Of a stretch of DNA of 53,308 bases, positions 2 through 38,412 are shown piece after piece. Both the position numbers and the translations under genes were made by a program. The first letter of the stretch is position 1. Each line of letters starts with the position of its first letter. The stretch is from Deltaproteobacteria bacterium (lineage in GTDB: Bacteria > Myxococcota_A > UBA9160 > SMWR01): positions 1 through 53,308 of the forward strand of contig JAFDBP010000040.1 in assembly GCA_019313245.1 (NCBI GenBank). Reading direction: 5' to 3'. Under the pieces are notes generated by a model. That model saw only the letters and a program-made list of their open reading frames with translations, was not told the DNA's origin and searched no databases.

Positions 2-1894
2 ATGAACCACCTCTGGCGCCAGGGCACCGGCGCGTTCCAGCTCGAGAGCATCGACGGAATGCTCGAGGGGGGCTTCCTCACGGACCTTCAGGATCGAACG
101 CGCTCGACTTCGAGCGGTTCGGAGTTCAACAGGGTAGAGTTGTCCCAGCTTCTGCACCTGAACACATTTGGATACATCTATCACCCCCGATTTCTCACGT
201 TCGACACCGGACTCAAGCTCGAAGCGATTCAGGGCCTGTCCGGACAGAGCGATACGCGGTTCCTGTGGGGTGGCGACTTTCGAATCAACTTCCTGGAGAA
301 CCATCGCAACAGCCTCTCGCTTTTCGGCACAGTACTCGACTCGGAGCAGTCGCCACCTTTCTCGGAGACCTACGACATCACGAACCAGATATTCGGAGCC
401 ACCTTCTTCCAGAAATGGGGCTGGATTCCCTTCGACCTCACGTATAGGCACGCCAGAAGGAAGGGTGGCGCAGGCAATCAGCTCGATGACAAGTCGGACA
501 AGGTGATCTTCGACGGTCGCTATTCGATCGGCGAGCGATCCGATGGAAGAATCGGGTATGACCTCGCCTACGAGGAAATTCAAGATCACGATCTTCGCAG
601 GCAGAACCTGATCGCGACCAACGTGTCCTATTTTGGCGACGGTGTCGACAAGGAGTTGAGAACCGACCTGCGGCTTTTCGAGGAGCGCGACGGCCAGAAG
701 CGTAAAACCGCCAATGGGCGGACGGCCTTCGATTGGCGGCACACCGATACCTTCCGGACGCGCTACGTATTCAACGCACGTTACAGTGATTTCGACGTCC
801 AGGACTCGACCAACCTGAACGGTCGGTTCTTTCTCATGCATCGGCTGTACGAGAGCCTGAAAACGGATCTCGAACTCTACGGAGAATACGAGGACTCCAG
901 CTTTCGCAGGCGAGACGAGTTTGGCGGCATTCTTTCCGCGAATTACCTCAAGCGGCTCGGCGATTGGGGGCGTCTCAACATCGGCGTAGCCCCGCGCACC
1001 TCGATGATCTACAACCGTCTGGAGGAGGATACGGCGTTCGTTTTCGACGAGCGCCACGTCATGGTCGGGCTTCAGCCGGTGCTGTTGAGGCAACCGGACA
1101 TCATCGTTACCAGCATCGTGGTGACAGATGAAACTGGATCGGTCGTGTACGATGAAGGGCCGGCAGGAGACTACATCGTCAACCAGACCGGAGGTGGCAT
1201 CCAGACCGAGCTGGTGCGCACTCCCATCAGCACCATCGGAGACGGGCAACTCGTCCTCGTGGATTACGAGTTCGAGTTGATCGGCGACAACGACACGCTC
1301 CAGACGGGTGTTGCCGTCCATTCCTCCTTGTCGTTCCTGGATTATTGGAGGGTGTTCGGGCGTTACGACAATCAGGATTATCACGTGATCTCGGGAGACG
1401 AAGATCGCCTCCGCTTCAATGACTTCGATCGTTACCTGGCCGGTCTGGAGTTCAGCCGGAAGTGGTTCACCGCGAAGGGAGAATATGAGGAGAACGACGC
1501 GACCTTCGGGTCCTTCCGGGGGTTCGCCGGGATGGTTGCGCTCTACACGGGCGGCATGCGGTCTTGGAACGCTCACGCCACTGCGGATTTCGCCCACAGA
1601 GACCACACGGATGACGTAGGCGAAAAGGTGAATCGCTTTTCGCTTTCAGGAGGTACGAGCAAGCGGTTCTTCAAATGGGGGATGCTGGAGGCCGAAGCAA
1701 GTTGGATGAGGGCGCGCTGGAGCGGACAGTCGAGCGAGGCGAACGACGTCGACGCTCTGCGCGTCAAGCTGAAATACACGTGGTGGTATGAGAATTTCGA
1801 GGTCAAGTTGGAGACTGGATTCGCTCAGCTCCTGCGTCCAACCGAAGACCGCAGCGTGTTCAGATTCGATCTCCGGGCGCGTCGTGTATTCTAG
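2..1894 (+). CDS. Outer-membrane beta-barrel protein (putative porin of a porin-cytochrome/nanowire export complex), probably 5'-truncated by the window edge
   Basis: 630-aa ORF of alternating polar/aromatic beta-strand segments ending in an aromatic beta-signal-like motif (FRFDLRARRVF). No signal peptide is visible, so the true start is likely upstream. First gene of a run with an NHL protein and a multiheme cytochrome. Confidence 0.75.
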   Translation: MNHLWRQGTGAFQLESIDGMLEGGFLTDLQDRTRSTSSGSEFNRVELSQLLHLNTFGYIYHPRFLTFDTGLKLEAIQGLSGQSDTRFLWGGDFRINFLENHRNSLSLFGTVLDSEQSPPFSETYDITNQIFGATFFQKWGWIPFDLTYRHARRKGGAGNQLDDKSDKVIFDGRYSIGERSDGRIGYDLAYEEIQDHDLRRQNLIATNVSYFGDGVDKELRTDLRLFEERDGQKRKTANGRTAFDWRHTDTFRTRYVFNARYSDFDVQDSTNLNGRFFLMHRLYESLKTDLELYGEYEDSSFRRRDEFGGILSANYLKRLGDWGRLNIGVAPRTSMIYNRLEEDTAFVFDERHVMVGLQPVLLRQPDIIVTSIVVTDETGSVVYDEGPAGDYIVNQTGGGIQTELVRTPISTIGDGQLVLVDYEFELIGDNDTLQTGVAVHSSLSFLDYWRVFGRYDNQDYHVISGDEDRLRFNDFDRYLAGLEFSRKWFTAKGEYEENDATFGSFRGFAGMVALYTGGMRSWNAHATADFAHRDHTDDVGEKVNRFSLSGGTSKRFFKWGMLEAEASWMRARWSGQSSEANDVDALRVKLKYTWWYENFEVKLETGFAQLLRPTEDRSVFRFDLRARRVF

Positions 1895-1901
1895 GAGCGC
1901 A

Positions 1902-2978
1902 ATGTCGGTGCTGAAATGCGGACGATCGCGGGAGCTTGTCGCCTCTGCATTTCGGAGGCTCGGCATTTTCGCAGCCATTGCCACAGCACTGGCGTGCGCG
2001 GTGTCGCCGCTCCCGCCGCCGAACTGGAACCATCCCGAAATCGCGTTGTCGTGGCCCGAGGCCCCGGAACCCGCTCGGATCGAGTACATGGGAGTCCTGC
2101 GCAACCCGGCCGACCTGGGCCGCAAACCCGGTTGGTTCGAACGGGTCAAGAACGCGGTTTTTGGCACGGAGCCGAAGTCGTTGCTGAGGCCGACCGCCGT
2201 TGCCAGGAATGCGGCGGGGGTTCTGGCCGTGGCCGATCCCGGCCTTTCGGTCGTCCACCTATTCGATCTCGATCGAAGGGAGTACAGCCAGATCGGTGAG
2301 CAGAGCGCGTCGTTTCTGCGCTCGCCCATCGGCGTCGCGGTCGACGACTCCGGGAGCATCTACGTAGCGGATTCGGTGTTGGGCAGGGTCTTCGTCTTCG
2401 ATGCCAGCCGAGATCTCGTCGCCGAACTGGGAGAGGGCGAGCTGACTCGTCCGGTAGGCGTCGCGCTCGACCCCAGTCAGGAGCACCTCTACGTCGTCGA
2501 TACGATCGAATGTGAGGTGGTCGCGTTCGATCTTTCTTCCGGGCGCGCGGTCAACCGCTTCGGGCGGCGAGGGGTGGGGCCCACCGAGTTCAACGCTCCG
2601 ACTTATGTCGCGGTGGCGCGCGATGGGTCGATCAGCGTCTCGGACTCGCTGAACTTTCGGATTCAGCGTTTTCGCCCGGACGGTACGCCAATCGCTTCGT
2701 TTGGGCTGCCCGGGGATGGGGCGGGGCACTTCGCCCGCCCGAAGGGGGTTGCCATCGACACCGAAGGGCGTATCTACGTGGTCGATGCGGGCTTCGAGAA
2801 CATCCAAATCTTCGATCCGGATGGAGTGTTGCTTCTTCCATTCGCCGGACCGGGGACGGGTCCGGGCCAGTTTTCACTCCCCGGTGGCCTCTTCATCGAT
2901 TCAACGAACACCATCTGGGTTGCCGATGCGTTCAATCGGCGGATTCAGGTGTTTCGGCTGGTGGAACACGCGCCATGA
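1902..2978 (+). CDS. NHL-repeat six-bladed beta-propeller lipoprotein
   Basis: AGGAG (1893-1897) precedes ATG 1902. Lipobox-like TALAC. Repeated P-x-G-V-A-V-D...I-Y-V-A-D...R-I/V-Q-V-F NHL motifs. Overlaps the next gene at ATGA. Confidence 0.88.
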   Translation: MSVLKCGRSRELVASAFRRLGIFAAIATALACAVSPLPPPNWNHPEIALSWPEAPEPARIEYMGVLRNPADLGRKPGWFERVKNAVFGTEPKSLLRPTAVARNAAGVLAVADPGLSVVHLFDLDRREYSQIGEQSASFLRSPIGVAVDDSGSIYVADSVLGRVFVFDASRDLVAELGEGELTRPVGVALDPSQEHLYVVDTIECEVVAFDLSSGRAVNRFGRRGVGPTEFNAPTYVAVARDGSISVSDSLNFRIQRFRPDGTPIASFGLPGDGAGHFARPKGVAIDTEGRIYVVDAGFENIQIFDPDGVLLLPFAGPGTGPGQFSLPGGLFIDSTNTIWVADAFNRRIQVFRLVEHAP

Positions 2979-4657
2979 AGATTCACTTTCTCATCACATT
3001 GTTTGCCCTACTGGCCTTGGCGCTGCCGCATTCGGCCGACGCGAAGGTGCGAGGCACGAAGCACGACCTGTCGGGCCGCAGCGCGGGTGACGGCATGGAC
3101 CAGATCTGCTTCTTCTGTCACACACCTCACACCGTGTTGCCGGCGACGCCGGCCTGGAGTCGAGCGCAATCGACAATCATCTACACGCCCTATTGGAGTC
3201 CGACGTTGGAGGCGACCGTCGGGCAGCCCACGGGTTCGTCGAAGATCTGCCTGAGCTGCCACGATGGCACCATCGCCAGGGCGTCCGCGCCGGATCCCAC
3301 CAAAGCTCGTGGTCCGCGCATGGGTTTTTTCGGGCTTTCGCAACGGGCGAATCTCACTTCTGACCTTTCCGACGATCATCCAATTTCCTTCATCTATGAC
3401 TCCGCGCTGGCTCTGGAAGATCGCGAGTTGGTGGATCCGGCGCTGTTGCCGAACGAGATCCTTCTCGATGCGAATGACGAGATGCAGTGCACGAGTTGCC
3501 ACGACCCCCACGCTTCCAGCTATCCGAAATTTCTGGCGATGAGCAATGCGTATTCGGAGCTCTGCACCGCGTGCCACGACAAGCAGGGTTGGGAGCAATC
3601 GGCCCACTCCACATCGCCGGCCGGATGGAACGGATCGGGAACGAATCCGTGGCCCTACTCGAGTGAGACTTCGGTCGCCGCGAACGGGTGCGCCAACTGT
3701 CACACCGCTCACGGTGCTGGCATCGCGGAGTCGCTTCTGGTGTTTCCGAGGGAGGAGGACAATTGTTTTTCGTGCCACGACGGGAGCACTGCCGATACCA
3801 ATGTTCTGGCTGAGTTTCGCAAGAGTTTTCGCCATCCCGTGGAATCTTCTTTCGGTTCTCACGTGGCGACAGAAGCTCCCTTTGCGATGCCACGACACGT
3901 GGAGTGCCAGGACTGTCACAATCCCCACGCGGCATTCCAGGGCGAGGCCGCGGCGCCCGACATACCCGCATCGCTGAGCGGCGTTTCGGGAGTCGGGGCT
4001 TCGGGGACACCAGTCGAAATCGCACGTTACGAATACGAAGTCTGCTTTCGCTGCCATGCCGATGGGCCGGACGTCCCGTCACCCTACATCGAGAGACAGA
4101 TCCTCGAGCCGAACATTCGCCTCAAGATGGACATCCGAAACCCCTCGTACCACCCCGTGGTGGCTCAGGGGCAGAATGTCGACGTCCCGAGCTTGATCTA
4201 CCCGCTGCGAGAGACGTCGATGATCTATTGCAGTGATTGCCATTCCGGAAGTGCTGGGTCGGCGCAATTCGGTATTCGCGGGCCGCACGGATCCGATTGG
4301 CCATTTCTGCTCGAACAGCCGTACAGCGTTGCGGACGGAACCATCGAGAGCTACCAGGCATACGCCTTGTGTTACAAGTGTCACGATCGAAATCTGCTGC
4401 TCTCCGACGGTCCGACCGGAATACACAACAAGCATGTTGTCGAAGAAGACACGACCTGCTCGGTTTGTCACGACCCCCACGGAATCAGCGCCACCCAGGG
4501 CAACGCGACCAACAATTCCCACCTCATCAACTTCGACATCAGCATCGTCGATCGCGATCCGAATACGGGGATGTTGATGTTCGAGGACATGGGCTCGAAC
4601 CACGGTCAGTGTTATCTCTCATGTCACGGAACGGTGCACAGCCCGGCGGAGTACTGA
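2975..4657 (+). CDS. Secreted 12-heme c-type cytochrome with an N-terminal OmcE-like tetraheme module
   Basis: Sec signal peptide ending in ADA. 11 CxxCH motifs plus one CxxxCH (CYLSCH). The first four hemes follow KHDLS..ICxxCHTPH..SKxCLSCHDG..DDHPISF..CxSCHxxH..LCxxCHDK. Confidence 0.92.
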   Translation: MKIHFLITLFALLALALPHSADAKVRGTKHDLSGRSAGDGMDQICFFCHTPHTVLPATPAWSRAQSTIIYTPYWSPTLEATVGQPTGSSKICLSCHDGTIARASAPDPTKARGPRMGFFGLSQRANLTSDLSDDHPISFIYDSALALEDRELVDPALLPNEILLDANDEMQCTSCHDPHASSYPKFLAMSNAYSELCTACHDKQGWEQSAHSTSPAGWNGSGTNPWPYSSETSVAANGCANCHTAHGAGIAESLLVFPREEDNCFSCHDGSTADTNVLAEFRKSFRHPVESSFGSHVATEAPFAMPRHVECQDCHNPHAAFQGEAAAPDIPASLSGVSGVGASGTPVEIARYEYEVCFRCHADGPDVPSPYIERQILEPNIRLKMDIRNPSYHPVVAQGQNVDVPSLIYPLRETSMIYCSDCHSGSAGSAQFGIRGPHGSDWPFLLEQPYSVADGTIESYQAYALCYKCHDRNLLLSDGPTGIHNKHVVEEDTTCSVCHDPHGISATQGNATNNSHLINFDISIVDRDPNTGMLMFEDMGSNHGQCYLSCHGTVHSPAEY

Positions 4658-4659: not shown

Positions 4660-5193
4660 TCACTCGTCCCGAACGAAGAAGTAGGAGACATCCCTCTCTT
4701 CGCCGAATAGCGGGAGTCGGGTCGTCACGAACATGTGATCGGAATCGCTGAACGTGTAGGTGAGCACGGACGGGGAGCGCTCGTGTGTATTCGCGCCGAT
4801 GGCCGCTCGGCGCGCGACCCACGAATGGCCCGAAGATCGGATCGTGAGTGTATTCGCGTTTTCTGAGACGAGTTCCCAGCGGTCGTGGAATGGGCCGCCG
4901 AGCGGGCTCGTGATCTCGTAATGTCCGTCGGAGTGGAAGGTTTCGCGAATCGACGAGAAGGTTTCGCGAAACGCCTCGTCAAAATTCTCCAGTTCGCGAG
5001 GTGAGATCCGCGCGACCTCTTCTCTCTGAGCCGCCCTGTCGATGATCCAACTCCCGATGATTAGCGGTGCCTCGGAACTCGCGAGCGCTCGCTTCGCAGA
5101 CGCATCGAAGGTCCGCTCGGGAGAGTCGCTTTCGCTACAAGCGGCGAGCGCCAGGAGCACCGCGACGGATGCGGCGGAGATGATCATTCGCAT
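4660..5193 (-). CDS. Hypothetical lipoprotein
   Basis: 177-aa ORF with a signal peptide and lipobox LAAC. The mature part is beta-rich (IIGSW start, lipocalin-like). GGGAG upstream. Confidence 0.65.
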   Translation of the reverse strand: MRMIISAASVAVLLALAACSESDSPERTFDASAKRALASSEAPLIIGSWIIDRAAQREEVARISPRELENFDEAFRETFSSIRETFHSDGHYEITSPLGGPFHDRWELVSENANTLTIRSSGHSWVARRAAIGANTHERSPSVLTYTFSDSDHMFVTTRLPLFGEERDVSYFFVRDE

Positions 5194-5542: not shown

Positions 5543-5620
5543 CAATCTCCCGCCTAGATGAAGCCCGGTCAGCCACGGATCTCGAGGTGGAGACGCGGGG
5601 CACCCGGGGGGAGCGCGACC

Positions 5621-6733
5621 ATGAGGCGAGTCAGCGCCAATCGACCGCTGCGGCGCGTCCGGTTTTCACGTCGGGCGACCCTTCTCGGTGCGACCTGCGC
5701 GGCGCTGTTCGCTCTTGCGGTTCCCGAGTTGGCCGGGGCGGCGGCGCTGAGCGACCAAAATCGAGACGGCGTGATCGACGTCGCCGACATCGTTCTCTTC
5801 AGCCAGTCCGAACTCGGACAGGATTGGCAGACCGTCGACTGGTGCGAGTGGCTGCAGACCCCGCGTAGGCGAGAGCGGCACCTCCAACAGCTGCTCGATT
5901 TCATCGACGAGTATTTTCGCTGCGATCAGGGCAATCCCTTTGCGATCCGCGATGCCAACGTTCATCCGACCCGCCTGACCTGGAGCGCGGACGCGAAGAA
6001 GATCTTCGTAACCGATTCCAAGATCGGCTCGGTCTTCATCTATGACTCGCTGGCGACGCCGATCGGAGAACTCAAGGATCTTGCCAAGCCGCTGGGTGTC
6101 GCCGTGAACTCGCAGGGCGACATCTACGTGGGGGACAACCATTCCAACGCGGTAGAGGTCTACAACTCCGAGGGTTCGCGGATCGCGACCATCGGCGCCG
6201 CGACGCTCAAGATGCCCAACGATCTGGCCTTCGACCAGAACGGCCGCCTCTACGTCGCTGACAGCAAGCGGAATCTGGTCGAGGTCTTCGACCCCGCGAG
6301 CGGCGCGAGCCTGCGGACGTTTGGCAGCGGCGAACTGCGCTTTCCGTCCGCGCTGGCGATTTCCGGTCAGGAGGTCTTTGTCGCCGACCAGTCGAACTTC
6401 CTCGTCAGGGTCTACGATCTCCAGGGAAACCTGCTTCGCTCGTTCGGCGGCAAGGTCACCCAGGGGTTCATGAACTACAACTGGCATGGCAAGTTCGCCC
6501 GCCTCCAGAGCCTCGCCGTCGACTCCGCGGGGCGCCTCCACGCCCTGGATAGCCACATGGGCGTGATCCAGATTCTGAGTGCCGCCGACGGCAGCTTCAT
6601 CGCTTCCTACGGGTCGAACGGGTCGGCGCCCGGAGAACTCGACCTGCCCCTGGACATCGACATCAACCAGTACGGAGAAGCGGCAGTGGCCAACACCCGC
6701 AACCGGCGGGTGGAGCTGCTCACGCCGCCCTAG
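5621..6733 (+). CDS. Secreted NHL-repeat beta-propeller with an N-terminal dockerin/EF-hand-like motif
   Basis: GGGGGAG before ATG 5621 (the ORF track start at 5558 is probably too early). Arg-rich signal peptide, DQNRDGVIDVAD motif, then NHL repeats. Confidence 0.82.
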   Translation: MRRVSANRPLRRVRFSRRATLLGATCAALFALAVPELAGAAALSDQNRDGVIDVADIVLFSQSELGQDWQTVDWCEWLQTPRRRERHLQQLLDFIDEYFRCDQGNPFAIRDANVHPTRLTWSADAKKIFVTDSKIGSVFIYDSLATPIGELKDLAKPLGVAVNSQGDIYVGDNHSNAVEVYNSEGSRIATIGAATLKMPNDLAFDQNGRLYVADSKRNLVEVFDPASGASLRTFGSGELRFPSALAISGQEVFVADQSNFLVRVYDLQGNLLRSFGGKVTQGFMNYNWHGKFARLQSLAVDSAGRLHALDSHMGVIQILSAADGSFIASYGSNGSAPGELDLPLDIDINQYGEAAVANTRNRRVELLTPP

Positions 6734-9700: not shown

Positions 9701-10422
9701 ACACCCAGAACGTCAGCCACCACGGAGTGCTGGGCCCCGCCTACGTCTACGCAACCGACTGCGTGGCGGCCGGAGATCCGCACTCGTGTTGCACGGGATC
9801 TGGAACCGGACCCACTTGCGGGCTCCCCTTCGGATCCATCGTCAACGCCGCCATCCAGGGCGTGCGGACCGACCTCGATTGGAACTCGGTCATCGACTGC
9901 GAGGATTGCCACATCGGCCCGCCCGCGTTCGGCGGCGGTTCGGTCGTGCTGGGCGGCCACGGAACGCCGACAGCTCGCTACATGCTGAGGGACCACAATG
10001 GCGCCGAGCAGGTGACGGCACCGGTCGACGCGTCGACGGTCATCTGTCGCCGTTGCCACGACCCCGAATCTTCGAGCATCTATCCCTACCACACGCGCAG
10101 CGCGCACATGACCAACCTGCTGAACATCTTCGGCGTCGCCTGCATCGACTGTCACGGTGGCGGTGAGTGGGGGGGCATTCACGGCGTCGATGCCGTGGTT
10201 ACCGATGACGATGGCGGCGGCAGCTACAACCCCAACGTCTTTACCTACGGCAGTTCGCTCGACCTGATCCAGAACTGGACTGATTGGACGGACGGCGGCA
10301 TTTCCTGCTCGGCAGTGGCGAGTAAGACGCAGATCAACGACTGCACGCAGCACGGCGCGCAGAGCTACGCCCGCGACCCCCGGCGAGACGATGCGCCACA
10401 GCGCATCTACAGGCTTCCCTGA
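6751..10422 (+). CDS. Large modular extracellular multiheme cytochrome c (Cys-rich N-domain, FN3-like domains, Thr/Pro linker, 11 CxxCH)
   Basis: AGGAGG RBS and a signal peptide ending in AFA. Two homologous FN3-like domains flank an 84-aa TPTx repeat. The C-terminal half has 11 CxxCH motifs and many extra His. Confidence 0.9.
8053..8304 (+). repeat. 12-bp-period coding tandem repeat encoding ([12 protein letters not shown])n, about 20 units
   Basis: Translation [23 protein letters not shown]...TPT. Synonymous codons vary between units. Confidence 0.95.
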
Positions 10423-12880: not shown

Positions 12881-13231
12881 ATGGCAATCCTCGTGATGTT
12901 CAGCAACTACTTTCACGATCTCGCGACCGCGATCTTTGCGGTGAGCGCGGTGACCGCCTACCTCCTGCAGCGTTCGCTCGCGATGCAAACCGCACCCGCG
13001 TCCCTTCAGCCCGTGGTTCGCGGAATCCAACGCATGGGCTACTACTCGCTCGCGTGGACGCTCGTGTTCGGCGCCTTTCGCAGCATGACCTACCGCGAGT
13101 ACGAGTGGGTAGAGGCCGCAGGTCGTGATCAGGTGCCCGCGTTGGTGGTGAAGCACATCTTTCTAGCCGCTCTGGTCATCACCGGTGTGATCTTCCTCTA
13201 CAAGCTTCGCCGGCTACGGGTGGCGGGGTAG
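12881..13231 (+). CDS. Small three-TM membrane protein with intramembrane His residues (CopD-like topology), function unknown
   Basis: GAGAGG RBS. Three hydrophobic helices, with NYFHDLA and VVKHIFL motifs. Confidence 0.7.
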   Translation: MAILVMFSNYFHDLATAIFAVSAVTAYLLQRSLAMQTAPASLQPVVRGIQRMGYYSLAWTLVFGAFRSMTYREYEWVEAAGRDQVPALVVKHIFLAALVITGVIFLYKLRRLRVAG

Positions 13232-15244: not shown

Positions 15245-15260
15245 CGGCACGTCCTTTGCA
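15245..15260 (+). promoter_or_regulatory. Putative sigma-54 (-24/-12) promoter for the FG-GAP/PEP-CTERM gene
   Basis: CGGCACGTCCTTTGCA matches GGCACG-N4-TTGCA. GG at 15246-15247, GC at 15258-15259. Confidence 0.7.
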
Positions 15261-15273
15261 CAGGTTGGTAGAC

Positions 15274-21999: not shown

Positions 22000-22019
22000 G
22001 TTTCGACCGAAGAGTTGGT

Positions 22020-22825: not shown

Positions 22826-22903
22826 GGGCGCGGCACACCCCCAGGGGTGTTGCAGGGAATTTGAGGTATCTTGCGCGCCGTAAACGGGAATCGGGAGTAC
22901 GGG

Positions 22904-24046: not shown

Positions 24047-24104
24047 GGCTGGCCTCCCGCGGCGATCGCGGGCCCGATGGCGAAACTCGAAAGGGAGAAT
24101 GCGC

Positions 24105-26274: not shown

Positions 26275-26322
26275 ACGCGGAAACCAGCGGAATTGTCCTG
26301 CGACGAGTTCGTTGCCGAACTC

Positions 26323-30372: not shown

Positions 30373-30400
30373 CGGCAACCGTGGTTACGCGGTGTGCGCA

Positions 30401-32332
30401 TCAATGAGTGGGTACCTCGGGATCGGCGGCAGCGAGCGCGGCGCGAAGGCGGTCGAGGTTGTTGCGGTATTTGGAGTTGTCCGCGTCCAGCCGGAGTGCC
30501 TCTTGCACGAGTGAAAGCGCCTCGTCGAGGTCGCCGCGCACGTAGGCGAGAAATGCCAGCTCGTTGAGCGCCGATGCATTCTGGGAATCCAGTGCCAGTA
30601 GGCTTCGGTAGGTTGCTTCCGCGCCCGCGTAGTCTTTCAGGCCGAGCTGCAGGGGACCCAGCTGTTCGAGCAGCCTCTGCGGGCGCCAGCCGAACGCGAG
30701 TGCGCGCTCGAGCGCCGCGACCTGTAGCGCGGGTTCGCCAATGCGGTCGTAGAAGGCGGCCAGGATCACGGCGTCTTCGAATCGGGGGGGAAGCGCATCC
30801 AGGGCTGCGCGCGGATCCCGCGCGCGGATTGTCGCGGGTGTCGTCCCCGGCATCCAAAAGGAGGCCGCCTGATCGAGGTAGACCAGGCGCCAGTTTGCAT
30901 CTCGCGCGAGATCGGGCAGTAACGCTTCCGCCTCCGGTGAGGTGTGCGCCAGCAGGATTCCGCGGAGATCGTGGGCGCGCACGGCATCTCTCCACTCTCC
31001 GGGAGTTCGCGTGGAGGCCAGGACGAATTCGATCCTCTCTGGGCCATAGACCTCCCATCTCCCATCGGTGAGCGGAAGGTTCTGCGGGTAGCGGTGGTAG
31101 ATCACGAAGCCGCCAAGCGTGTTCGAGTTCAGCACGTTGCCATCAAAATCGATCCGCTCGAGAAAATTCGGCAGACCGTGAGGAAAGAATGACTGCGTTA
31201 CGCCGAAACCCGCTCGTGTCGGAAGTTCGAGGTCGAGGTAGAAGCGACCGGAAAGCGGCATCCAACTCCACGCCAACATGGCCAGGGCGAGGGCGACGCA
31301 AGGGGCGGTTCGTCTGCCGAGCCGGTCGAGCATCGGCCCGATCGCTTCCGCCAAGAAAGGGACCGCGACTGCCGCGAAGAGGACGATGTTGCGGCGGCCC
31401 ATCAGCGCCGCGACGAACATGGCCGCCACGATGATGCTGCGCGCGAGCGGGAGCGGGCGGCGGCGCGCGAGCGCATGGATCGCAGAGCCCGCGAGCAGTG
31501 CGACCAGAGCGGCGAAGAACCAGAATGCCGGCGACGAGCGCGCGTTGGCACCGAAGGTTGGGCTCATCTCTCCGAGGCCGCTCACGATTCCCGGTGCGCT
31601 GGCCTCGGTCAGGATGAGGGCCGCGTACGCCCAGGCGCCACCTCCGTAGGGCGTGACCAGCGTCGCCAGCAGGACTGCACCCAGTGTTGCGAGCGCGGGT
31701 TTCCAATCTCGTGCTTTCGATCGCACGCCGGCCCAGACGGCTTCGACTGCGTATGCGCCGACCATGCCCGGTCCGATTGCAAAGAGGCCGTGGCTGTTCA
31801 CCCAGATCAGCTGGAGTGCGAACAGTATGGCAATCCGAAATCGGAGCGGGCGTTCCCGATCGGCGAGAACCAGGTAGAAGGCCGCGACCATCAGCACCGT
31901 GATGGCCTCTGGGCGCGGCAGGAAGCGCTCGACGCAGGCCATCGCGGCGAGAAATGTCAGAGCTGCACTCGTCGGCGCCTCGGCCCAGCGCCGCGCCGCC
32001 CGGTAGGTGAGCGCAAACGTGCCGCCCCAGAGGCCGATCTGGACCCACTGCGCGCCCAGGAGTCCGAAGGCGCGGTGAAAGACGCCGAGGAGCAGCTGGA
32101 ACAGCCAATGAGAGTCGTGATACGGAAGCCCCAGACCCAGTACGGTGTAGCGATCGACGCGGGGGATGGATCTGTGATCGAGGATGTCCCGACCGATTGC
32201 GATGTGCCACCACGCGTCGAGCGAGTAGAGCTCCTGAACGAGGAACGAGGCGATGACCCACGCGAGCGCCGCCAGCAGTGCGGCGTGCGCCAGGCGGTTC
32301 GCGTCACTTGCAGAGTGGGACCTCGGCGACAA
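30401..32332 (-). CDS. Polytopic membrane protein, GT-C-like (DxWWH family), with C-terminal TPRs
   Basis: DAWWHIAIG, HWLFQ, PRPE and WVNSHGLF motifs, many TMs, terminal TPRs. TTG start. Confidence 0.7.
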   Translation of the reverse strand: MSPRSHSASDANRLAHAALLAALAWVIASFLVQELYSLDAWWHIAIGRDILDHRSIPRVDRYTVLGLGLPYHDSHWLFQLLLGVFHRAFGLLGAQWVQIGLWGGTFALTYRAARRWAEAPTSAALTFLAAMACVERFLPRPEAITVLMVAAFYLVLADRERPLRFRIAILFALQLIWVNSHGLFAIGPGMVGAYAVEAVWAGVRSKARDWKPALATLGAVLLATLVTPYGGGAWAYAALILTEASAPGIVSGLGEMSPTFGANARSSPAFWFFAALVALLAGSAIHALARRRPLPLARSIIVAAMFVAALMGRRNIVLFAAVAVPFLAEAIGPMLDRLGRRTAPCVALALAMLAWSWMPLSGRFYLDLELPTRAGFGVTQSFFPHGLPNFLERIDFDGNVLNSNTLGGFVIYHRYPQNLPLTDGRWEVYGPERIEFVLASTRTPGEWRDAVRAHDLRGILLAHTSPEAEALLPDLARDANWRLVYLDQAASFWMPGTTPATIRARDPRAALDALPPRFEDAVILAAFYDRIGEPALQVAALERALAFGWRPQRLLEQLGPLQLGLKDYAGAEATYRSLLALDSQNASALNELAFLAYVRGDLDEALSLVQEALRLDADNSKYRNNLDRLRAALAAADPEVPTH

Positions 32333-32486
32333 CCGGCCTCCAGGGTCGATACGTGCCCGCCATGGGGGGTCTCGGCGCGCGTTCGCGTGTAGTGCGGGGG
32401 AATTCTATCCGATCTGCTCTGCGATTCGAGTGCGATGCGCGCGCGATCGAAGCCGCGCTGCAATTTCGCGTTACACTCGCGAGCCG

Positions 32487-34208
32487 ATGGAGTCGAACCG
32501 CACCGGCGCCGAACGGGATGAAGTGATGGGCGACGCTTCCTTCTCCTTGCGGGCGCGCAGCGACGCGCGGCTCGTCATTGGGCTCTGCCTGCTGCTGGCC
32601 GCGGCAACCTTCGCGAGTTATGGACCGCTTCGCGACGCGGCATTCGTCAACTTCGACGATCAGGAGTACGTCTACGAAAACGCGCACGTCGTCTCTGGTT
32701 TGACCTGGGAGAACGTCCGCTGGGCATTTGCCACCACGCAAATGGGCAATTGGAACCCGCTCACCTGGCTGTCGCATATGCTCGATTGCGAACTGTTCGG
32801 GTTGAATGCCCGCGGTCATCATCTGACGAATCTGCTGCTGCACGTCGCGAACACCCTTCTACTGTTTCTCATCTTGCTGCGCGCGACCCGATCTCACTGG
32901 AGGAGCGGCTTCGTCGCGGCGCTCTTCGCGCTCCACCCCCTCCACGTGGAGTCGGTGGCGTGGGTGTCCGAGCGGAAGGACGTGCTCAGCACCTTCTTCT
33001 GGATGCTCACGGTCGGGAGCTACCTGCGGTTCGTGAGGGTCCCATCCGCTCGCAGCTATCTCCCCGTCGGCCTCTTCTTCGCACTCGGCCTGATGGCCAA
33101 GCCGATGCTGGTCACGCTGCCGTTCTCACTGCTTCTATTGGACTTCTGGCCGCTGCGTCGAATCGAAATCGAGCGGTCGAGCGCTGCGGCCGGCACCGCG
33201 TGGCGGCAGCTTCTGACTCTCGTTCGCGAGAAGCTTCCGCTGTTTGTGCTCTCGGGAATTGCGAGTGCCATTGCCTTGTGGGCCCAGCAAGGCAGCGGCG
33301 CGGTGCGCTCTCTCGATGCCTGGCCGCTCGGTATCCGCATCGCAAACGCCGCAGTCGTCTATGTCGAGTACATCGCGAAGATGTTCTGGCCCACGCAGCT
33401 CGCCATCTACTATCCCCATCCGGGTTTTCCGCCCGTCTGGAAGCTCGCGCTTTCCGTAGCTGCATTGGTGGCGATCTCGCTCTTCGCGCTCCGCGCGGCG
33501 AGTCGTCGGCCCGCTCTTACAGTGGGATGGCTGTGGTATCTCGGCACCCTGCTTCCCGTGATCGGACTCGTGCAGATCGGTTCGCAGGCGATGGCCGATC
33601 GATACACCTACGTGCCGCTGATCGGTCTGTTCATCGCGCTCGCGTGGGCAATTCCGGAATCTGCAGTGCGCGGGCGCCAGCGGCAGCTCGCGCTAGGGGC
33701 CGGCGCCGCGGCGGTTCTCGCGCTGTTTTCGCTGCTGACGTGGCAGCAGGTGGGATACTGGCGAGGCGGTATCCGGCTCTTCGAGCGCGCGCTGGAAGTC
33801 ACGCAGAACAACAGCCTGGCGCATTTCAGTCTCGGGTTGGCGCTGGGCCACGAGGGGCGATTCGCGGAGGCCCTGACGCACCACGAGGCGGCGCTGCGCA
33901 TCGACCCGAACCACGAGGAGGCCCTTTACGAGATCGGCATCCTCTTCGAGCGACTGGGTAGAACGGAAGATGCGATTCGGGCATACAGCGAAGCGATCCG
34001 AATGCATCCCCACCACGTGCGCGCGCGCAACAACCTCGCGGCAATCTTTGCGCGTGCGGGGCGGCTCGACGAGGCCATCTTTCAGCTGCGCGAAGCGCTC
34101 CGCGTCGATCCCGCTAATCAGCAGGTGCGGAGGAACCTCGAGAAGATCGAAGAATTTCGGACTCGCACAGGAGTGCGGCTCCCGCCCGCTCGAATGCCAT
34201 CCGGGTAG
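32487..34208 (+). CDS. TMTC-like GT-C membrane glycosyltransferase with TPR repeats
   Basis: FVNFDDQEYV, NWNPLTWLSHMLD, HHLTNLLLH, LHPLHVESVAWVSERKDVL and ADRYTYVP motifs, plus TPRs. Start is 32487 or 32526. Confidence 0.88.
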   Translation: MESNRTGAERDEVMGDASFSLRARSDARLVIGLCLLLAAATFASYGPLRDAAFVNFDDQEYVYENAHVVSGLTWENVRWAFATTQMGNWNPLTWLSHMLDCELFGLNARGHHLTNLLLHVANTLLLFLILLRATRSHWRSGFVAALFALHPLHVESVAWVSERKDVLSTFFWMLTVGSYLRFVRVPSARSYLPVGLFFALGLMAKPMLVTLPFSLLLLDFWPLRRIEIERSSAAAGTAWRQLLTLVREKLPLFVLSGIASAIALWAQQGSGAVRSLDAWPLGIRIANAAVVYVEYIAKMFWPTQLAIYYPHPGFPPVWKLALSVAALVAISLFALRAASRRPALTVGWLWYLGTLLPVIGLVQIGSQAMADRYTYVPLIGLFIALAWAIPESAVRGRQRQLALGAGAAAVLALFSLLTWQQVGYWRGGIRLFERALEVTQNNSLAHFSLGLALGHEGRFAEALTHHEAALRIDPNHEEALYEIGILFERLGRTEDAIRAYSEAIRMHPHHVRARNNLAAIFARAGRLDEAIFQLREALRVDPANQQVRRNLEKIEEFRTRTGVRLPPARMPSG

Positions 34209-34262
34209 AGCGAGAGTTTTCGCCCCAACACCGAACATCGAGCGGTGAGCGTGATCGCGCGG

Positions 34263-35765
34263 TTAATTTGCGCCGCCGATCCGCTCGATCATGTAGGCAG
34301 CGTGGCTTTGCTCTCGGGTGATCCCGAGCGCTCGTTCCAACGGAAGGGCCTTCTCGTACCAGACCAGGGCCTCCTCGTCATTGCCGCGTTCGTGGGCCCT
34401 GTCGCCGAAGCGGATGTGGCGCTGCGCGTAGTAGCGCGTGTTTTCGACGCCGGCGGCGATATGCCGTTGCGCGTCCGCTTCGCGCCCCAGTCGGGAGTAC
34501 TCTCGGATCAGGTTGATCCGGACGGCATTCGAACGCGGGGTCTTTTGCGCGGCATCCTCGAAGATCGCAATGTTGTCCACCCAGGATCGGTTGCGGTTGA
34601 TCGTCGCGGATCCCAGTACCAGGCAGAGCGCCACGAACACCGCGAAGATGGCGCGGCGCGACCGCATCTCGGTCCAATTCTCGGGGATGAGGCTCGCGAG
34701 CAGAAAGAAGATTCCGAGCGCCGGCAGGTAACAGAATCGCTCCCCCATCATGTCGCCGCGGATCGGAATGACGTTCATCACGGGGAGCAGTGTGATGAAG
34801 AACCAGGCGATGCCGAATGCCAGCTGGGGGCGGCGACGGATCGAAATCGCCATCACGGTCAGCAGCCCGAGGATGACGAGAACCGAAATCGCCACGGCGG
34901 GATCGAAGGCGGATTCTGGCACGGGAACATCGTGACGGATGGACTGATTCACCGGAACCAGGATGAGTCCGAGATATCGCGCCACTACGGTCGCCTGCAT
35001 GAGCATGGTGCGGAGAAACGTCACGCCGGCATAGGACGCGCCCTGTCCGATGTCGCCCACCAGGCTGCTGCGCAATGCGACGAAACCGATCGACAGCGCC
35101 AGCAGAAGCGCGATGCAGCCGAGGCACACCCGTCTGCTCTCAGGTTTTCTCAGGCCGGTCTTTCTCGTCAGATCGGAAGCGGCGAGAAGCAACGGCAGAC
35201 TCAGCGCCGATTCCTTCGAGAGAAGCGACAACGCGTAACAAGCCGCCAACCCGCAAATCGCAGAGGTCTTGTGGGCCGTCTCCGGAACGCGGAGATACAG
35301 CGAGAAAGCCAGCAGATAGAAGAGGGCGAACATGACGTCAGTGAGGCCGGTGATGCTGGAGACGGCCTCGGTCATCAATGGGTGCACTGCGAAGAGCGCG
35401 GCTACCGCGGTTGCGGTGTCCGATCGGCCCGACAGTCGGCGAAACAGGTTGAAGACCAGCACCACATTCAGCATGTGCAGAATTACGCAGAGCAGGTGGT
35501 ACGGCCAAGCCTGCAATCCAATGACTCGGTGCATCAGCGCATAGGTCAGCGTTCTGAGGGGTCGAAAGAACTTCTGCGCTTCATCGATGGATCCGGTAGA
35601 CGCGTCGGTGAAGAAAGTCGCCCAGTTGGAGAGATCCTGAACGGCGGTATTTCGCGTCAGTACGTACTCGTCGTCCCAGACGAAGCCGTTGGTCACCGCG
35701 TTGGCGTAGACGAGACCTGTGACGCCAACGAGAATTGCGACGCGAAGGATCGCTAGGCGATTCAT
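34263..35765 (-). CDS. TMTC-like GT-C membrane glycosyltransferase with a short TPR tail
   Basis: GFVWDDEYV, FFRPL, FAVHPLMTEAV, SKES and GERFCYLP motifs. GGAG RBS before ATG 35765. Confidence 0.85.
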   Translation of the reverse strand: MNRLAILRVAILVGVTGLVYANAVTNGFVWDDEYVLTRNTAVQDLSNWATFFTDASTGSIDEAQKFFRPLRTLTYALMHRVIGLQAWPYHLLCVILHMLNVVLVFNLFRRLSGRSDTATAVAALFAVHPLMTEAVSSITGLTDVMFALFYLLAFSLYLRVPETAHKTSAICGLAACYALSLLSKESALSLPLLLAASDLTRKTGLRKPESRRVCLGCIALLLALSIGFVALRSSLVGDIGQGASYAGVTFLRTMLMQATVVARYLGLILVPVNQSIRHDVPVPESAFDPAVAISVLVILGLLTVMAISIRRRPQLAFGIAWFFITLLPVMNVIPIRGDMMGERFCYLPALGIFFLLASLIPENWTEMRSRRAIFAVFVALCLVLGSATINRNRSWVDNIAIFEDAAQKTPRSNAVRINLIREYSRLGREADAQRHIAAGVENTRYYAQRHIRFGDRAHERGNDEEALVWYEKALPLERALGITREQSHAAYMIERIGGAN

Positions 35766-35926
35766 TGCGGAATTCTCCAGCTCGTCCGCGCAATGTCGCG
35801 GCGCGGATCGCGGAATACCGAGGTTACGAGTGGAGCGAGTAATTTGAATTGAATCCCTCGCAACCATCCATCGCGAATAGACTCTACTGGTGTCCGCTGT
35901 GTGAAGCACATGCGGGAGAAGCCGTA

Positions 35927-36850
35927 TTAGCGGGCGTTGCTCGCAGGTCCGAACTGGCGCGCGCCGCCATTGAGAATCTGCCCCGACTGCGGGCGGAAAC
36001 CGTCGGGCGTATTCGTCGCGAACCGGATGTCCACGGTTTGCCACTCCAGGTCTTCATCCACCGTGAATACGTCGAAGTGGAGGTGGGGGCTCTGGCTGTA
36101 ACCGGTGTTGCCGCTGTAGCCGATCAGGTCGCCCGCGGCGACGCGGTCGCCGACGTCGACGTGCGCGCCTCCCTGCTTCAGGTGCAGATAGCGTGCGATG
36201 GTTCCGTCGTCGTGGAGAATGAAGATCTGGTTTGCGCGCTTCTTGAATCGCTCCTCGAGACCACCCTGGCGGAAGTTCTCGATTGCCCGGATCACGGTGC
36301 CACCCCGCGCGGCGCGGATTGGCGTTCCAGACGGCGTCCAGAAATCGAACGCGAAGTGCGACTTGCCGGTGTGCGAAAAGGAGCCGCCGATCGCCTGGCC
36401 GACCTCGAAGCGAAAATTCGGCGCCCAGGGCAGCCAATATCGAGCGTTTGCATCGTGCCGAGCGCCGAGGACGCCGGTCGTCCAGTCCCAACGCGAGCGC
36501 CAGCTGAACGAATCCGCCCGTTCGTGCGCCCGGATTTCGACCAATCGCTTCCGGGTTCCGGCCGGGACGACGGCCCTCACGGGCAGCGCCTCGGAGCTCT
36601 TCATGTTCTCGAGGATCGGAAAATCGAGCTGCAGGCTCACGGGCGCATCGAGTTGATTTACCGCATACAGCGATGCGCCGGCTTCCTCTCGCTCGACCTC
36701 GATGCAGACGCCATCCGGGCAATCGATCTCGTCGGCTCGGCTCGGCAACAGGGCAAAGCAGGCCAGCAGCAGCGCGACTCGCGCGATCCGGAGCGAAGCC
36801 GACAGCGGGCGGTCGCCTCGCGGGGCGCTCGATGTCGCGCAACACGCCAT
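35927..36850 (-). CDS. M23 family metallopeptidase
   Basis: SH..FAFDF, GTPIRAARGG, YLHL and GYSGNTGYSQSPHLHF motifs. Signal peptide. Confidence 0.87.
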   Translation of the reverse strand: MACCATSSAPRGDRPLSASLRIARVALLLACFALLPSRADEIDCPDGVCIEVEREEAGASLYAVNQLDAPVSLQLDFPILENMKSSEALPVRAVVPAGTRKRLVEIRAHERADSFSWRSRWDWTTGVLGARHDANARYWLPWAPNFRFEVGQAIGGSFSHTGKSHFAFDFWTPSGTPIRAARGGTVIRAIENFRQGGLEERFKKRANQIFILHDDGTIARYLHLKQGGAHVDVGDRVAAGDLIGYSGNTGYSQSPHLHFDVFTVDEDLEWQTVDIRFATNTPDGFRPQSGQILNGGARQFGPASNAR

Positions 36851-36939
36851 ATCCCTCTTTTCGAAATCCCGCCTCCCGAAGTGAAGGCCGGCTCGGCGCG
36901 CGTGATACCTTTGGCGGCCAGGGGGTGTTGTCCGTCGCG

Positions 36940-38412
36940 ATGGAATGGCTGTTGAGCAGCGTTGGGCGCGGGGCGCTCGCCGCCCTGGTGGGCGGAATTG
37001 GGCTGGCCGGGGGCTGTGCGCCGGAGCCGGGCGATTCCCGGCCGTCCATCCTGCTCGTGGTGATCGATACGCTGCGTGCAGACGCGGTTTCTGCGTACGG
37101 CGCGGTCGAGGGGACCACGCCCGCGTTCGACGCTCTGGCCTCCGAGGGGCTGCTCTACGGGCGCGCTTTCGCGCCCTCGCCCTGGACGCTGCCCTCTCAC
37201 GCATCGCTGATGACTGGGCTCGAGGTCGATCGGCACGGCGTCGGCGTCGGCGGGCAGATGGGGCTGCGCGCCGAATTCGCGACGCTCGCCGAGCGGCTGC
37301 TGGCCGCCGGTTATCAGACGGCTGGGTTTTCGGAGAACCCACTCGTGAGCGACCTATTCGGCTTCGCACAGGGCTTCGAGCGCTTTGCCGCGGTCACGGT
37401 CGACGATGTGATCGAAGAGGATGAGCGCCCCGGCAGTCTGCAATTCGACATCGTCGCAGAGGTGGCGGCCTTCGCCGCGGGCCGAGATCGCGAGCGCCCG
37501 TTTTTCATCTTCGTCAATCTATTCGATCCCCACTCTCCCTATCGGGATCGCGGGCAGAACCGATTTATCGGCCGCGGCGTTTCGATCGGCGACACCTGGA
37601 CGGCGGATGCGTTGAAGGCGTCGCCCAATCGGATCTGCGACCGGCTTCCGCCTCCGGAGGATCTGAAGCAGTTGCACGGGCTGTATCTGGGCGACGTCGC
37701 GGCGGCGGATGAGAAGCTCGGAAAGATCGCGGCGATCGCGCGCGAGGCGGCGGAGGGCGGGTTGGTCAGCGTCGCAACCGCGGATCACGGGGAGCATTTC
37801 GGTGAGCACCGGCTGCTCGATCACGAGTTCAGCGTTCGGGCGCCGGTTCTGAGCATTCCCCTCGCCGTCCACGGGCTTCCCGGTGTGCGGGCGGACCGCA
37901 TCGAAGCACCGGTGACACTCGTCGATGTGGCAGCTTCGGTGCTGCGTTGGGCCGGTGCGGAAATCCCCTCGGAGTTCGCCGGACGGCCGCTGCCGATACG
38001 CAAATCGGAAGTCGATCGGTCTGGTGTCGACCTGCTCGCCGTCTACAGCGACGAAAGATTGAGCGTGCCCGAGGACTGGAGCGAAGATCTCGCGCCTGCA
38101 GAAGCCGCCAGGGATACCAAGCGGTCGGGCTGCTGGCCGAGCGACCGGGTCTTCGGAGACATGGCGGCGCTGACGCGCTGGCCGTTCAAACTGATCTGGT
38201 TCGAGAACTACCCGGCCGAACTCTACGACTTGAGCTGGGATCAGTTGGAGCGCTCGGATCTCGCCGAGCTGCGGCCCGAGGTCCGCGGCCCGCTGGTCGA
38301 AGAAGCCCAGCACCGAGTAGAGGAACTCGGACTGGCGCGCGCCGCGGGCGCGGTCGAGCTGCCGTCCGAAGCGGAACTCGAGGCATTGCGGGAACTCGGC
38401 TACCGGGAGTAG
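36940..38412 (+). CDS. Sulfatase-like hydrolase/transferase lipoprotein
   Basis: Lipobox-like LAGGC. LLVVIDTLRAD, PWTLPSHASLMTG, FDPHSPY, ADHGE and C-terminal LRELGY motifs. Confidence 0.85.
   Translation: MEWLLSSVGRGALAALVGGIGLAGGCAPEPGDSRPSILLVVIDTLRADAVSAYGAVEGTTPAFDALASEGLLYGRAFAPSPWTLPSHASLMTGLEVDRHGVGVGGQMGLRAEFATLAERLLAAGYQTAGFSENPLVSDLFGFAQGFERFAAVTVDDVIEEDERPGSLQFDIVAEVAAFAAGRDRERPFFIFVNLFDPHSPYRDRGQNRFIGRGVSIGDTWTADALKASPNRICDRLPPPEDLKQLHGLYLGDVAAADEKLGKIAAIAREAAEGGLVSVATADHGEHFGEHRLLDHEFSVRAPVLSIPLAVHGLPGVRADRIEAPVTLVDVAASVLRWAGAEIPSEFAGRPLPIRKSEVDRSGVDLLAVYSDERLSVPEDWSEDLAPAEAARDTKRSGCWPSDRVFGDMAALTRWPFKLIWFENYPAELYDLSWDQLERSDLAELRPEVRGPLVEEAQHRVEELGLARAAGAVELPSEAELEALRELGYRE

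Follow-up and report, generated by a model that had tools for sequence, protein, structure and literature searches.

A putative OmcE-type cytochrome assembly with an apparently three-module twelve-haem protein on a contig of an uncultured deltaproteobacterium

The cluster described here occupies positions 2-38412 of contig JAFDBP010000040.1, from the Deltaproteobacteria bacterium assembly GCA_019313245.1. This contig (C40) was analysed over its whole length of 53,308 nucleotides, referred to below as the window, and belongs to an assembly of 3.88 Mb in 308 contigs that is 84% complete and 3.5% contaminated. The 23 genes picked at 2-38412, in a search for open reading frames (ORFs) guided by the GC content of third codon positions, include a tetrahaem cytochrome of the OmcE family, a 12-haem cytochrome, NHL propeller lipoproteins and a large beta-barrel (Table 1). 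An earlier note on this DNA, made from the sequence, had read the locus as a self-contained module that matures, glycosylates, exports and anchors a nanowire. Our own leaning, held with moderate confidence, is that the locus encodes an OmcE-type extracellular multi-haem cytochrome assembly. By sequence comparison its core is co-conserved across phyla and among relatives of the host, and its 12-haem protein, which reads as three tandem OmcE-like modules, is a candidate for the base or anchor of a filament.

The tetrahaem and twelve-haem cytochromes

By its matches in the PDB, the tetrahaem protein is a full-length member of the OmcE family. Indeed, it matches both solved OmcE filament subunits, that of Desulfuromonas soudanensis (9YUQ, 5.5e-28, residues 12-207 against 4-218 of 218) and that of Geobacter sulfurreducens (7TFS, 1.2e-23, residues 13-207 against 9-232 of 232), while a scan of NCBIfam returned generic CxxCH domains and no named family. 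It is 35-39% identical to the OmcE homologues of four Desulfuromonadia loci; the corresponding figure for the two solved filament formers, compared with one another, is 41% (Petersen et al., mBio 2026, PMC13712944). The four CxxCH motifs (C47/C50/H51, C96/C99/H100, C175/C178/H179 and C201/C204/H205) are kept in 42 of 42 rows of an alignment for which the first 40 of 91 tetrahaem ORFs were used. The same holds for four further histidines (H35, H54, H132 and H182), three of them internal distal residues and one an N-terminal donor located in the stretch H-D-L-S. A quick tree was drawn from 81 of 151 rows, every second row of two large groups being taken; it groups the Geobacteraceae OmcE proteins with the tetrahaem subfamily, apart from the N-terminal module of the 12-haem protein (SH-aLRT, the Shimodaira-Hasegawa-like approximate likelihood ratio test, 92).

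Nine conserved histidines are counted for the four haems in a second alignment (A2) made from the first 70 of the 91 ORFs. The ninth, His67 (22319-22321), ends the stretch P-L-W-N-H and is present in 85 of the 91 stand-alone tetrahaem rows, whereas this site holds arginine or lysine in three of four Geobacteraceae OmcE homologues (PLWN-R) and in 39 of 51 N-terminal modules of 12-haem proteins. On these alignments, a conserved ninth histidine of the stand-alone tetrahaem subfamily is a new observation. The gene is followed, 43 nt past its stop codon, by a hairpin terminator (22787-22814) with a 12-bp stem, 9 GC pairs and a T-rich tail. Strong terminators follow major-subunit genes, and the position of this one suggests a tetrahaem dosage much above that of its partners and of the downstream NHL gene.

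The 12-haem protein carries eleven CxxCH motifs and one CxxxCH. Its sequence can be read as three tandem OmcE-like modules at about residues 24-206, 205-392 and 386-560, an interpretation that is new here. The first 200 residues match 9YUQ (6e-28) and 7TFS (2e-21). Among the invariant residues of the orthologues (n=54), the arrangement H...CxxCHxxH...CxxCH...H...CxxCHxxH...CxxCH recurs threefold, its third repeat being degraded. Each of the modules 1, 2 and 3 has its own donor histidine and four invariant histidines outside the motifs, H30 being nearly invariant. The alignment concerned (A3) leaves out 4 of 55 ORFs classed as 12-haem, which were short or second copies, and adds 2 from relatives.

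Profile comparisons with hhalign point to the same organization. The tetrahaem profile aligns with module 1 over its full length (probability 100%, 6e-67) and with module 2 (residues 205-392) collinearly over columns 3-178 of 179 (97.8%, 6.8e-13); in the latter alignment the donor motif S-A-H-x-x-S..W pairs His35 with His211. Module 2 in turn aligns with module 3 (95.5%, 1.6e-8), so as to superpose haem 5 on haem 9, haem 6 on haem 10, His287 on His487 and haem 7 on haem 11. Of eight control cytochromes, six stayed at about 1e-5 to 1e-6 or weaker, over 31-97 columns. The tetrahaem protein was also modelled by ESMFold2 together with module 1 and four haems. The complex scored 0.53 (0.53, 0.58 and 0.52 in the runs) against 0.00 for the best control, with at least 85% of contacts common to the runs and a partner pLDDT (predicted local distance difference test) of at least 69. 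Of 80 solved complexes, 58 attained the mark applied, as did 2 of 110 mismatched pairs; at a score of 0.60 or less it was attained by only 7 of the 80 solved complexes and by both mismatches. This score lends weak support to the contact, and the pass may reflect the likeness of the model to solved complexes of the same kind, or a memory of them.

A split arrangement was observed at three further loci, belonging to two Geobacteraceae and one Trichloromonas-labelled genome and lying away from omcE (L181:3672-7172, L182:8299-11302 and L183:2100-5043). There, the order is an NHL gene, a 4-haem OmcE-like gene, whose product is 259-303 residues long, and a gene with seven CxxCH motifs; each cytochrome has its own signal peptide. 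The two cytochromes may be the OmcP/OmcO pair.

Co-conservation of the core cluster

Relatives of the tetrahaem protein, counted as one genome per species, number at least 539, and the best 80 loci were analysed. The records of these best 80 are labelled Bacteroidota, Ignavibacteria/Chlorobiota, Calditrichota, Gemmatimonadota, Planctomycetota, Omnitrophota, KSB1, Sumerlaeota, Holophagae, Deferribacteres, Opitutia, Bdellovibrio and several proteobacterial classes. These names come with the records of metagenome-assembled genomes (MAGs), in which binning errors are possible. OmcE clusters have been listed for five phyla (PMC13712944), and the host considered here, as well as most of these best 80 loci, bears other phylum labels. 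With this reserve on the labels, the cluster type is found under at least a dozen phylum-level labels, far beyond the five of that list, which is new here.

The companions of the tetrahaem gene were counted in all 80 loci and in the 38 of them that have full 10-kb flanks. A full-length 12-haem orthologue accompanies it in 51 of the 80 loci and 35 of the 38; exactly 12 haem motifs are present in 51 of the 55 ORFs classed as full-length 12-haem proteins. An NHL gene occurs in 75 of the 80 and in all 38 fully flanked loci, 37 of which hold two or more copies, and a gene like that at 1788-2978 precedes the 12-haem gene in other phyla as well. The barrel is present in 48 of the 80 loci and 28 of the 38, and all three companions are found together in 26 of the 38.

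The related genomes (n=41, that of the window included) give a comparable picture. The tetrahaem gene is present in eight of them, one by a weak partial match (1.7e-4), and five of these eight carry the fused N-terminal module of the 12-haem protein. All six genomes that have the barrel also have the tetrahaem gene. In a genome of the same family but another genus (G010), the genes for CcsA, the 116-residue membrane protein, the radical SAM enzyme, the tetrahaem protein, an NHL protein, a multi-haem cytochrome (MHC), the barrel, another NHL protein and the 12-haem protein are contiguous, with identities of 90%, 72% and 82% for the first three. The search for co-occurrence across genomes that the earlier note had suggested thus gives, on these sequence matches, a core of tetrahaem protein, 12-haem protein, NHL lipoproteins and barrel of about 28 strands that is conserved together both across phyla and among relatives.

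As to the barrel itself, an AlphaFold2 (AF2) model of mean pLDDT 90 is all-beta, with about 28 long strands and a small beta domain inserted at residues 344-425. Foldseek returned large outer-membrane barrels only, namely MtrB with the best template modelling (TM) score of 0.44, the FimD usher, LptD and TonB-dependent receptors, and the protein ends with phenylalanine. No Pfam or NCBIfam match was found for it. Judging from its homologues, roughly 30-60 N-terminal residues are missing.

Proposed assembly and its alternatives

Within OmcE filaments, a histidine of the neighbouring subunit completes a haem (PMC9473688, PMC12954529). The assembly proposed here would follow the same principle. ResB and CcsA would attach the haems in the periplasm, and the donor histidine of each later module of the 12-haem protein would complete the last haem of the preceding module, as neighbours do in an OmcE filament, His211 and His393 being the donors concerned. 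This would leave His30 free and module 3 with spare histidines, so that module 3 could complete itself with the conserved His484 and His555. The free His30 would complete the open haem of a separate tetrahaem protein and so dock the first subunit, from which further tetrahaem subunits would polymerise outward. The barrel would let the assembly cross the outer membrane or sit in it, and the NHL lipoproteins would assist assembly or anchoring. As the weakest step of the scheme, the GT-C genes may O-glycosylate the Ser/Thr-rich tetrahaem protein or the Thr/Pro linker of the 11-haem cytochrome. The spare histidines of module 3 would match what PMC13712944 expects of an 'anchor', a protein with four haems and nine histidines, of which none was found in the operons examined in that report. 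It is conceivable, if rather doubtful at present, that the 12-haem protein is a covalent trimer of OmcE repeats which ends in a self-completed anchor module and whose free donor histidine nucleates or terminates the tetrahaem polymer at the barrel.

Several points weigh against this proposal. Compared with the tetrahaem profile, module 3 gave an hhalign probability of 29%, which is not significant. Moreover, the 8-haem protein of one Geobacteraceae omcE cluster, used as a control, scored 3e-11 over 98 columns (that of the other cluster, 2e-6), and part of the module signal may therefore be a family-wide likeness of haem motifs. The AF2 model obtained for the 12-haem protein is of low quality (mean pLDDT 67, residues 32-128 under 50), and Foldseek found nothing at E <=0.001 with this low-confidence model, the best match being 7TFS at 8e-3. 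The score of the modelled complex gives weak support only, and the tetrahaem gene is patchy among the relatives. If His67 is an axial ligand, the tetrahaem protein could be self-satisfied and act as a cap instead of polymerising. Furthermore, the deletion of DFE_0448-0450 in Desulfovibrio ferrophilus, from a compositionally similar cluster with 12-haem and NHL genes, left Fe(III) oxide reduction unimpaired (PMC9769857). Filament formation by the tetrahaem protein is thus far a prediction.

The same genes may instead build a finite conduit through the outer membrane, in which a single tetrahaem protein caps the 12-haem protein and 16 haems stand in a row in or on the barrel, stabilised by the NHL lipoproteins and working in the manner of porin-cytochrome or Mtr complexes. 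We regard this as possible, though on the unlikely side. The ninth histidine found in 85 of the 91 tetrahaem rows agrees with the terminating 'anchor' of four haems and nine histidines predicted in PMC13712944, but a histidine that stands in for arginine or lysine may do no more than bind a haem propionate. In most loci there is a single tetrahaem gene and a single 12-haem gene, which suits a conduit; the strong terminator, on the other hand, suggests that far more tetrahaem protein is made than of its partners. MtrB gives the best TM score for the barrel, and the weak docking score fits a cap as well as it does a filament base. Against the conduit stand the N-terminal donor histidine, kept in every one of the 42 rows, and the quick tree, in which the nearest relative of the tetrahaem subfamily is the filament-forming OmcE. 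Still less can be said for an ordinary soluble periplasmic electron carrier in a periplasmic-respiratory cluster, which we consider very improbable: small tetrahaem proteins are often periplasmic, and inspection of the sequence revealed no localisation signal beyond the signal peptide, but full-length homology to two extracellular filament subunits and the constant linkage with a very large outer-membrane barrel and lipoproteins speak against it.

The glycosylation step of the extracellular assembly favored here needs a separate discussion. The earlier note had counted six GT-C-like genes. Five are supported, namely that at 19554-21941 and the four that reach the Pfam PMT_2 cut-off (24802-26274, in a six-frame search only, 28630-30378, 32253-34208 and 34263-36044), each of these four with 4-9 transmembrane-like segments. 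The sixth, 30401-32332, is a polytopic membrane protein with TPR; it fell outside Pfam PMT_2, also with a hidden Markov model (HMM) of its paralogues, and has a structural lead only, one neighbouring Atlas cluster with GT87 in 15% of its members. At the DNA level, the window aligns with contig C44 of a genome of the same genus (G003) at 19308-19530, 21841-24715 and 35947-39500, and the synteny continues through PHO4, PhoU, AMP ligase and TilS at about 90% protein identity. Between these aligned parts, segment 1 (19531-21840, about 2.3 kb) is replaced by 113 nt in G003 and segment 2 (24716-35946, 11.2 kb) by 32 nt, and all six GT-C-like genes, together with one sulfatase-like gene, fall within these two segments. 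By this comparison, the GT-C/TPR and sulfatase-fold genes were inserted recently around the tetrahaem gene and are specific to the species, and the claim of a self-contained glycosylating module is not supported in the form given in the earlier note.

The link of this array to the cytochromes is weak. In our estimate, it is an even question whether its genes have anything to do with them or whether they belong to a genome-wide family concerned with envelope glycoconjugates that was inserted at a permissive site. Of the 17 PMT_2 matches of the genome, 13 lie on other contigs, yet the four of the window fall within 1.4% of the genome. At least 14 other contigs carry sulfatase-like paralogues. 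Neither G003 nor the contiguous cluster of G010 has the array, and both genomes keep the cytochrome genes. Each same-genus genome holds 3-12 paralogues, and none holds an orthologue of either gene tested: nothing matched gene 28630-30378 in any of the five (77-97% complete), and gene 34263-36044 has only paralogues of 26-34% identity. A wider search for relatives of gene 28630-30378 gave 40 pattern matches, none of which was confirmed. Across the 80 loci, searched with a family HMM, a GT-C neighbour is clear in L057 only, weak in L011 and marginal in L025, and no GT2, GT4 or sugar-nucleotide enzyme was found among the 23 proteins scanned. In favor of a connection, the two separate segments flank the 2.9-kb tetrahaem-NHL block, and the first GT-C gene downstream lies 68 nt from this block on the same strand. 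By the same HMM, GT39-type (PMT_2) genes are found near omcE in two of four Desulfuromonadia loci: in a Geobacter-labelled genome, such a gene separates omcE from an NHL gene, and in a Trichloromonas-labelled genome, another lies some 9.5 kb away from the OmcE homologue. Glycosylation clusters also lie beside omcE in Geobacter and Geomonas (PMC13712944). The mature tetrahaem protein contains 25.7% Ser+Thr (rank 2 of 71), against 20.4% for its orthologue in G003, which is devoid of the GT-C array. At best, the array offers a natural comparison between a species that has it and a sister species that does not.

The remaining genes, the host and related systems

Nearly every gene listed in the earlier note was found again by Pfam, NCBIfam and inspection of the sequence. 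This applies to the OmcE-like tetrahaem gene, the beta-barrel, the three NHL propellers, the haem lyase of the locus, the B12 radical SAM enzyme and the two Thr-type sulfatase-like genes, as well as to the total of 27 haem motifs, which a recount distributes as 12 (2975-4657), 11 (6751-10422) and 4 (22121-22744). The locus ends, as stated there, at ordinary housekeeping genes. Scans with Rfam and for tRNA genes gave no match in the window.

Table 1. Features of the window, with coordinates in the 53,308-nucleotide contig
Coordinates	Strand	Feature	Basis
2..1894	+	Large outer-membrane beta-barrel, N-terminus cut by contig start; candidate secretion pore or sheath	AF2, Foldseek
1788..2978	+	NHL beta-propeller, probable lipoprotein	Pfam NHL 4.4e-26, ALAC lipobox; start probably Met39
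2975..4657	+	12-haem cytochrome, putatively three tandem OmcE-like tetrahaem modules	PDB matches, hhalign, His pattern
4660..5193	-	177-residue lipoprotein	LAAC lipobox; no Pfam/NCBIfam match
5558..6733	+	Third NHL propeller, signal peptide, no lipobox found	Pfam NHL 8e-23
6751..10422	+	1223-residue cytochrome, 11 haem motifs, fn3 domain, Thr/Pro linker of ~100 residues	
10497..12784	+	ResB and CcsA, System II cytochrome c maturation	Pfam ResB 2.1e-23, Cytochrom_C_asm 1.9e-33
12881..13231	+	116-residue membrane protein	No family match; 72% identical in G010, same position
13393..14949	-	BchE-like B12-binding radical SAM enzyme	Pfam B12-binding and Radical_SAM
15256..19575	+	FG-GAP repeat surface protein, PEP-CTERM-like tail	FG-GAP, 14 stretches, 4e-101
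19554..21941	-	GT-C-like polytopic membrane protein, C-terminal TPR; inserted segment 1	Paralogue HMM 1.3e-43
22121..22744	+	OmcE-family tetrahaem cytochrome, 207 residues; candidate wire subunit	PDB matches, conserved ligands
22871..24046	+	NHL beta-propeller lipoprotein, constant neighbour of the tetrahaem gene	Pfam NHL 4e-19, LSSC lipobox
24009..24734	+	Membrane-anchored protein, weak TPR-like C-terminal part	One transmembrane-like segment; 71% identical in G003
24802..36044	.	Inserted segment 2: four PMT_2-type GT-C genes, one polytopic membrane/TPR gene, one sulfatase-like/TPR gene	
36673..38412	+	Sulfatase-fold enzyme, T-L-P-S-H at nucleophile site	Pfam Sulfatase 6e-29; 73% identical in G003
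From 38573		Housekeeping genes: PHO4, PhoU-like, acyl-AMP ligase, TilS, FtsH, CdaA	

The CcsA protein of the locus has the WWD motif as WGNYWNWD at residues 208-215. Elsewhere in the genome, a System I CcmE gene is found on contig C223 and a second ResB/CcsA-like pair on C205, which rules out the pair of the locus as the sole maturation system of the genome; it is therefore an additional one, as in the Desulfuromonadia and Tenderia clusters. The second CcsA-like gene is part of a cytochrome island (C205:6758-15110), where it adjoins a frame with 13 CxxCH motifs and a 1202-residue frame with ResB-like stretches. The BchE-like radical SAM enzyme scored 367 bits with TIGR02026, under the cut-off of 481. 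Its gene and that of the 116-residue membrane protein (12881-14949) keep their place beside CcsA and the tetrahaem gene in G010 (L188:261-2204), and neither was found in any of the 80 loci of other phyla; conceivably, the two proteins modify haem or cytochromes.

The Thr/Pro linker of the 11-haem cytochrome, of the form (T-P-T-A)n, extends from 8026 to 8325 (residues 426-525), between the N-terminal part with its fn3 domain and the haem domain, and contains 48 Thr and 25 Pro per 100 residues. Matches of this protein in the PDB to the circumsporozoite protein were discarded as spurious, the low-complexity linker being their only basis. The cytochrome is lineage-specific, with weak matches in 3 of the 80 loci of other phyla. 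A 74% identical copy of the 177-residue lipoprotein adjoins the 12-haem gene in genome G005. In the N-terminal part of the NHL protein encoded at 5558-6733, inspection by eye shows a D-x-N-x-D-G-x-I-D-like stretch, reminiscent of the calcium loops of dockerins or EF-hands. The TPR matches of the membrane-anchored protein at 24009-24734 appear only at E >=0.1.

The large FG-GAP protein had been taken for a PEP-CTERM adhesin. Its repeats are confirmed, and its C-terminus has PEP followed by a hydrophobic and then a basic stretch; as to the family, the six weak NCBIfam matches of this tail are all PEP-CTERM C-terminal ends, at E values of 0.014-0.29 and under the cut-off. Three strong exosortase matches, and one just over the cut-off, are present in the genome. 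The FG-GAP gene is absent from the G010 cluster.

Both sulfatase-like proteins (26323-28629 and 36673-38412) have T-L-P-S-H where sulfatases have C-x-P-x-R, the formylglycine-type arylsulfatase motif C/S-x-P-x-R being found in neither, and matches to the Phosphodiest family were obtained for both (8e-13 and 6.5e-7). They are therefore more likely to act in phospho-transfer or as phosphodiesterases than as sulfatases. Sulfatase-fold proteins with this Thr motif, some of them fused to TPR, form a family together with the paralogues on other contigs, and its spread parallels the GT-C/TPR expansion. A lipobox at residue 112 of the protein at 36673-38412 suggests a later start, and the roughly 900 nt (36045-36940) between the divergent gene 34263-36044 and this probable true start are about 83% identical in G003 at the DNA level. 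The ORF at 36198-36656 is probably not a gene, given its odd composition, its lack of a family and the DNA-level conservation of the stretch.

The host is, by its FtsH protein, no relative of Geobacter, in agreement with the earlier note: it shares 70-73% identity with the protein of MAGs labelled Myxococcota bacterium or delta proteobacterium, and with Geobacter-type records the identity does not exceed 62%. The genome is rich in cytochromes. It contains 34 open frames with at least four CxxCH motifs, 14 of them with at least eight, so that the further statement that this host is not known for electroactivity is doubtful and true only in that the organism is uncultured. One cytochrome island (C234:16621-29516) combines an NHL-like gene with frames of 26 and 16 CxxCH motifs and with a relative of the membrane/TPR gene 30401-32332.

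The kind of cluster found here has already been described, and the framework of the earlier note was right in this respect. A minimal OmcE cluster, located next to resB/ccsB, comprises OmcE, a large barrel, two MHCs and two beta-propeller lipoproteins; in another pattern, 15-70 glycosylation genes are added, including GT2, GT4, GT39, sugar modification enzymes, methyltransferases, exporters, TPR proteins and regulators (PMC13712944). Of the latter pattern, the window holds only the PMT_2 (GT39-like)/TPR and sulfatase-fold genes. The G. sulfurreducens system shares with the locus a full-length homologous subunit (7TFS) with the same haem-ligand pattern, the N-terminal donor histidine included, as well as NHL genes on both sides of the subunit gene, adjacent resB/ccsB and, according to PMC13712944, the barrel and nearby glycosylation genes with GT39 and TPR. 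In contrast, Geobacteraceae omcE clusters encode 9-10-haem and 8-haem cytochromes instead of a 12-haem protein of three modules, and the Geobacter island differs from the GT-C/TPR array of the window, which is a species-specific insertion without GT2 or GT4. The cluster of D. soudanensis WTL, whose OmcE bundles (9YUQ) are the best PDB match of the tetrahaem protein, likewise has two MHCs, two propeller lipoproteins, OmcE and a barrel (PMC13712944). Unlike the locus it has no OmcE-like module fused into a neighbouring 12-haem protein, and neither glycosylation genes nor an anchor or tip candidate are reported for it.

Other systems are similar in composition. The clusters DFE_448-451 and DFE_461-465 of D. 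ferrophilus IS5 contain 12-haem and smaller cytochromes with NHL proteins and have been proposed to form an outer-membrane cytochrome complex (PMC5815863, PMC9769857). The Uet system of 'Ca. Tenderia electrophaga' combines an extracellular tetrahaem protein, a barrel, two NHL proteins, an undecahaem cytochrome and CcsA/CcsB (bioRxiv 10.1101/2022.05.06.490989; PMC10734462); it differs in its link to electron uptake and in its peptidyl-prolyl isomerase, its cupredoxin and its three trihaem c7 proteins, which have no counterpart seen at the locus. MtrCAB and other porin-cytochrome conduits also join a large barrel to multi-haem cytochromes, but the barrel of the locus has about 28 strands and an inserted domain, and Pfam and NCBIfam scans of the locus gave no match above cut-off for MtrA, MtrB or MtrC. 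The combination of a fused three-module 12-haem protein, a nine-histidine subunit and an inserted array of GT-C genes only was not found described in the literature searched.

Open questions about cytochrome nanowires concern their secretion, their initiation and termination, and their attachment to the cell (PMC13712944). The locus gives a concrete candidate for the base, a 12-haem protein of three wire-like modules whose gene accompanies those of the subunit, of a large barrel and of two NHL lipoproteins. If the reading of this protein is true, it would supply the anchor or base of OmcE nanowires that was sought without success in the Desulfuromonadia operons of PMC13712944. The fused cluster type, with labels including Bacteroidota, Ignavibacteriota, Calditrichota, Gemmatimonadota and Planctomycetota, would then be the common form and that of the Geobacteraceae a split one. 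As the cluster type reaches groups with cultured members (Ignavibacterium, Melioribacteraceae), the idea can be tested in culture. If wires do form, long-range electron transfer would occur in far more bacteria than the five phyla listed so far.

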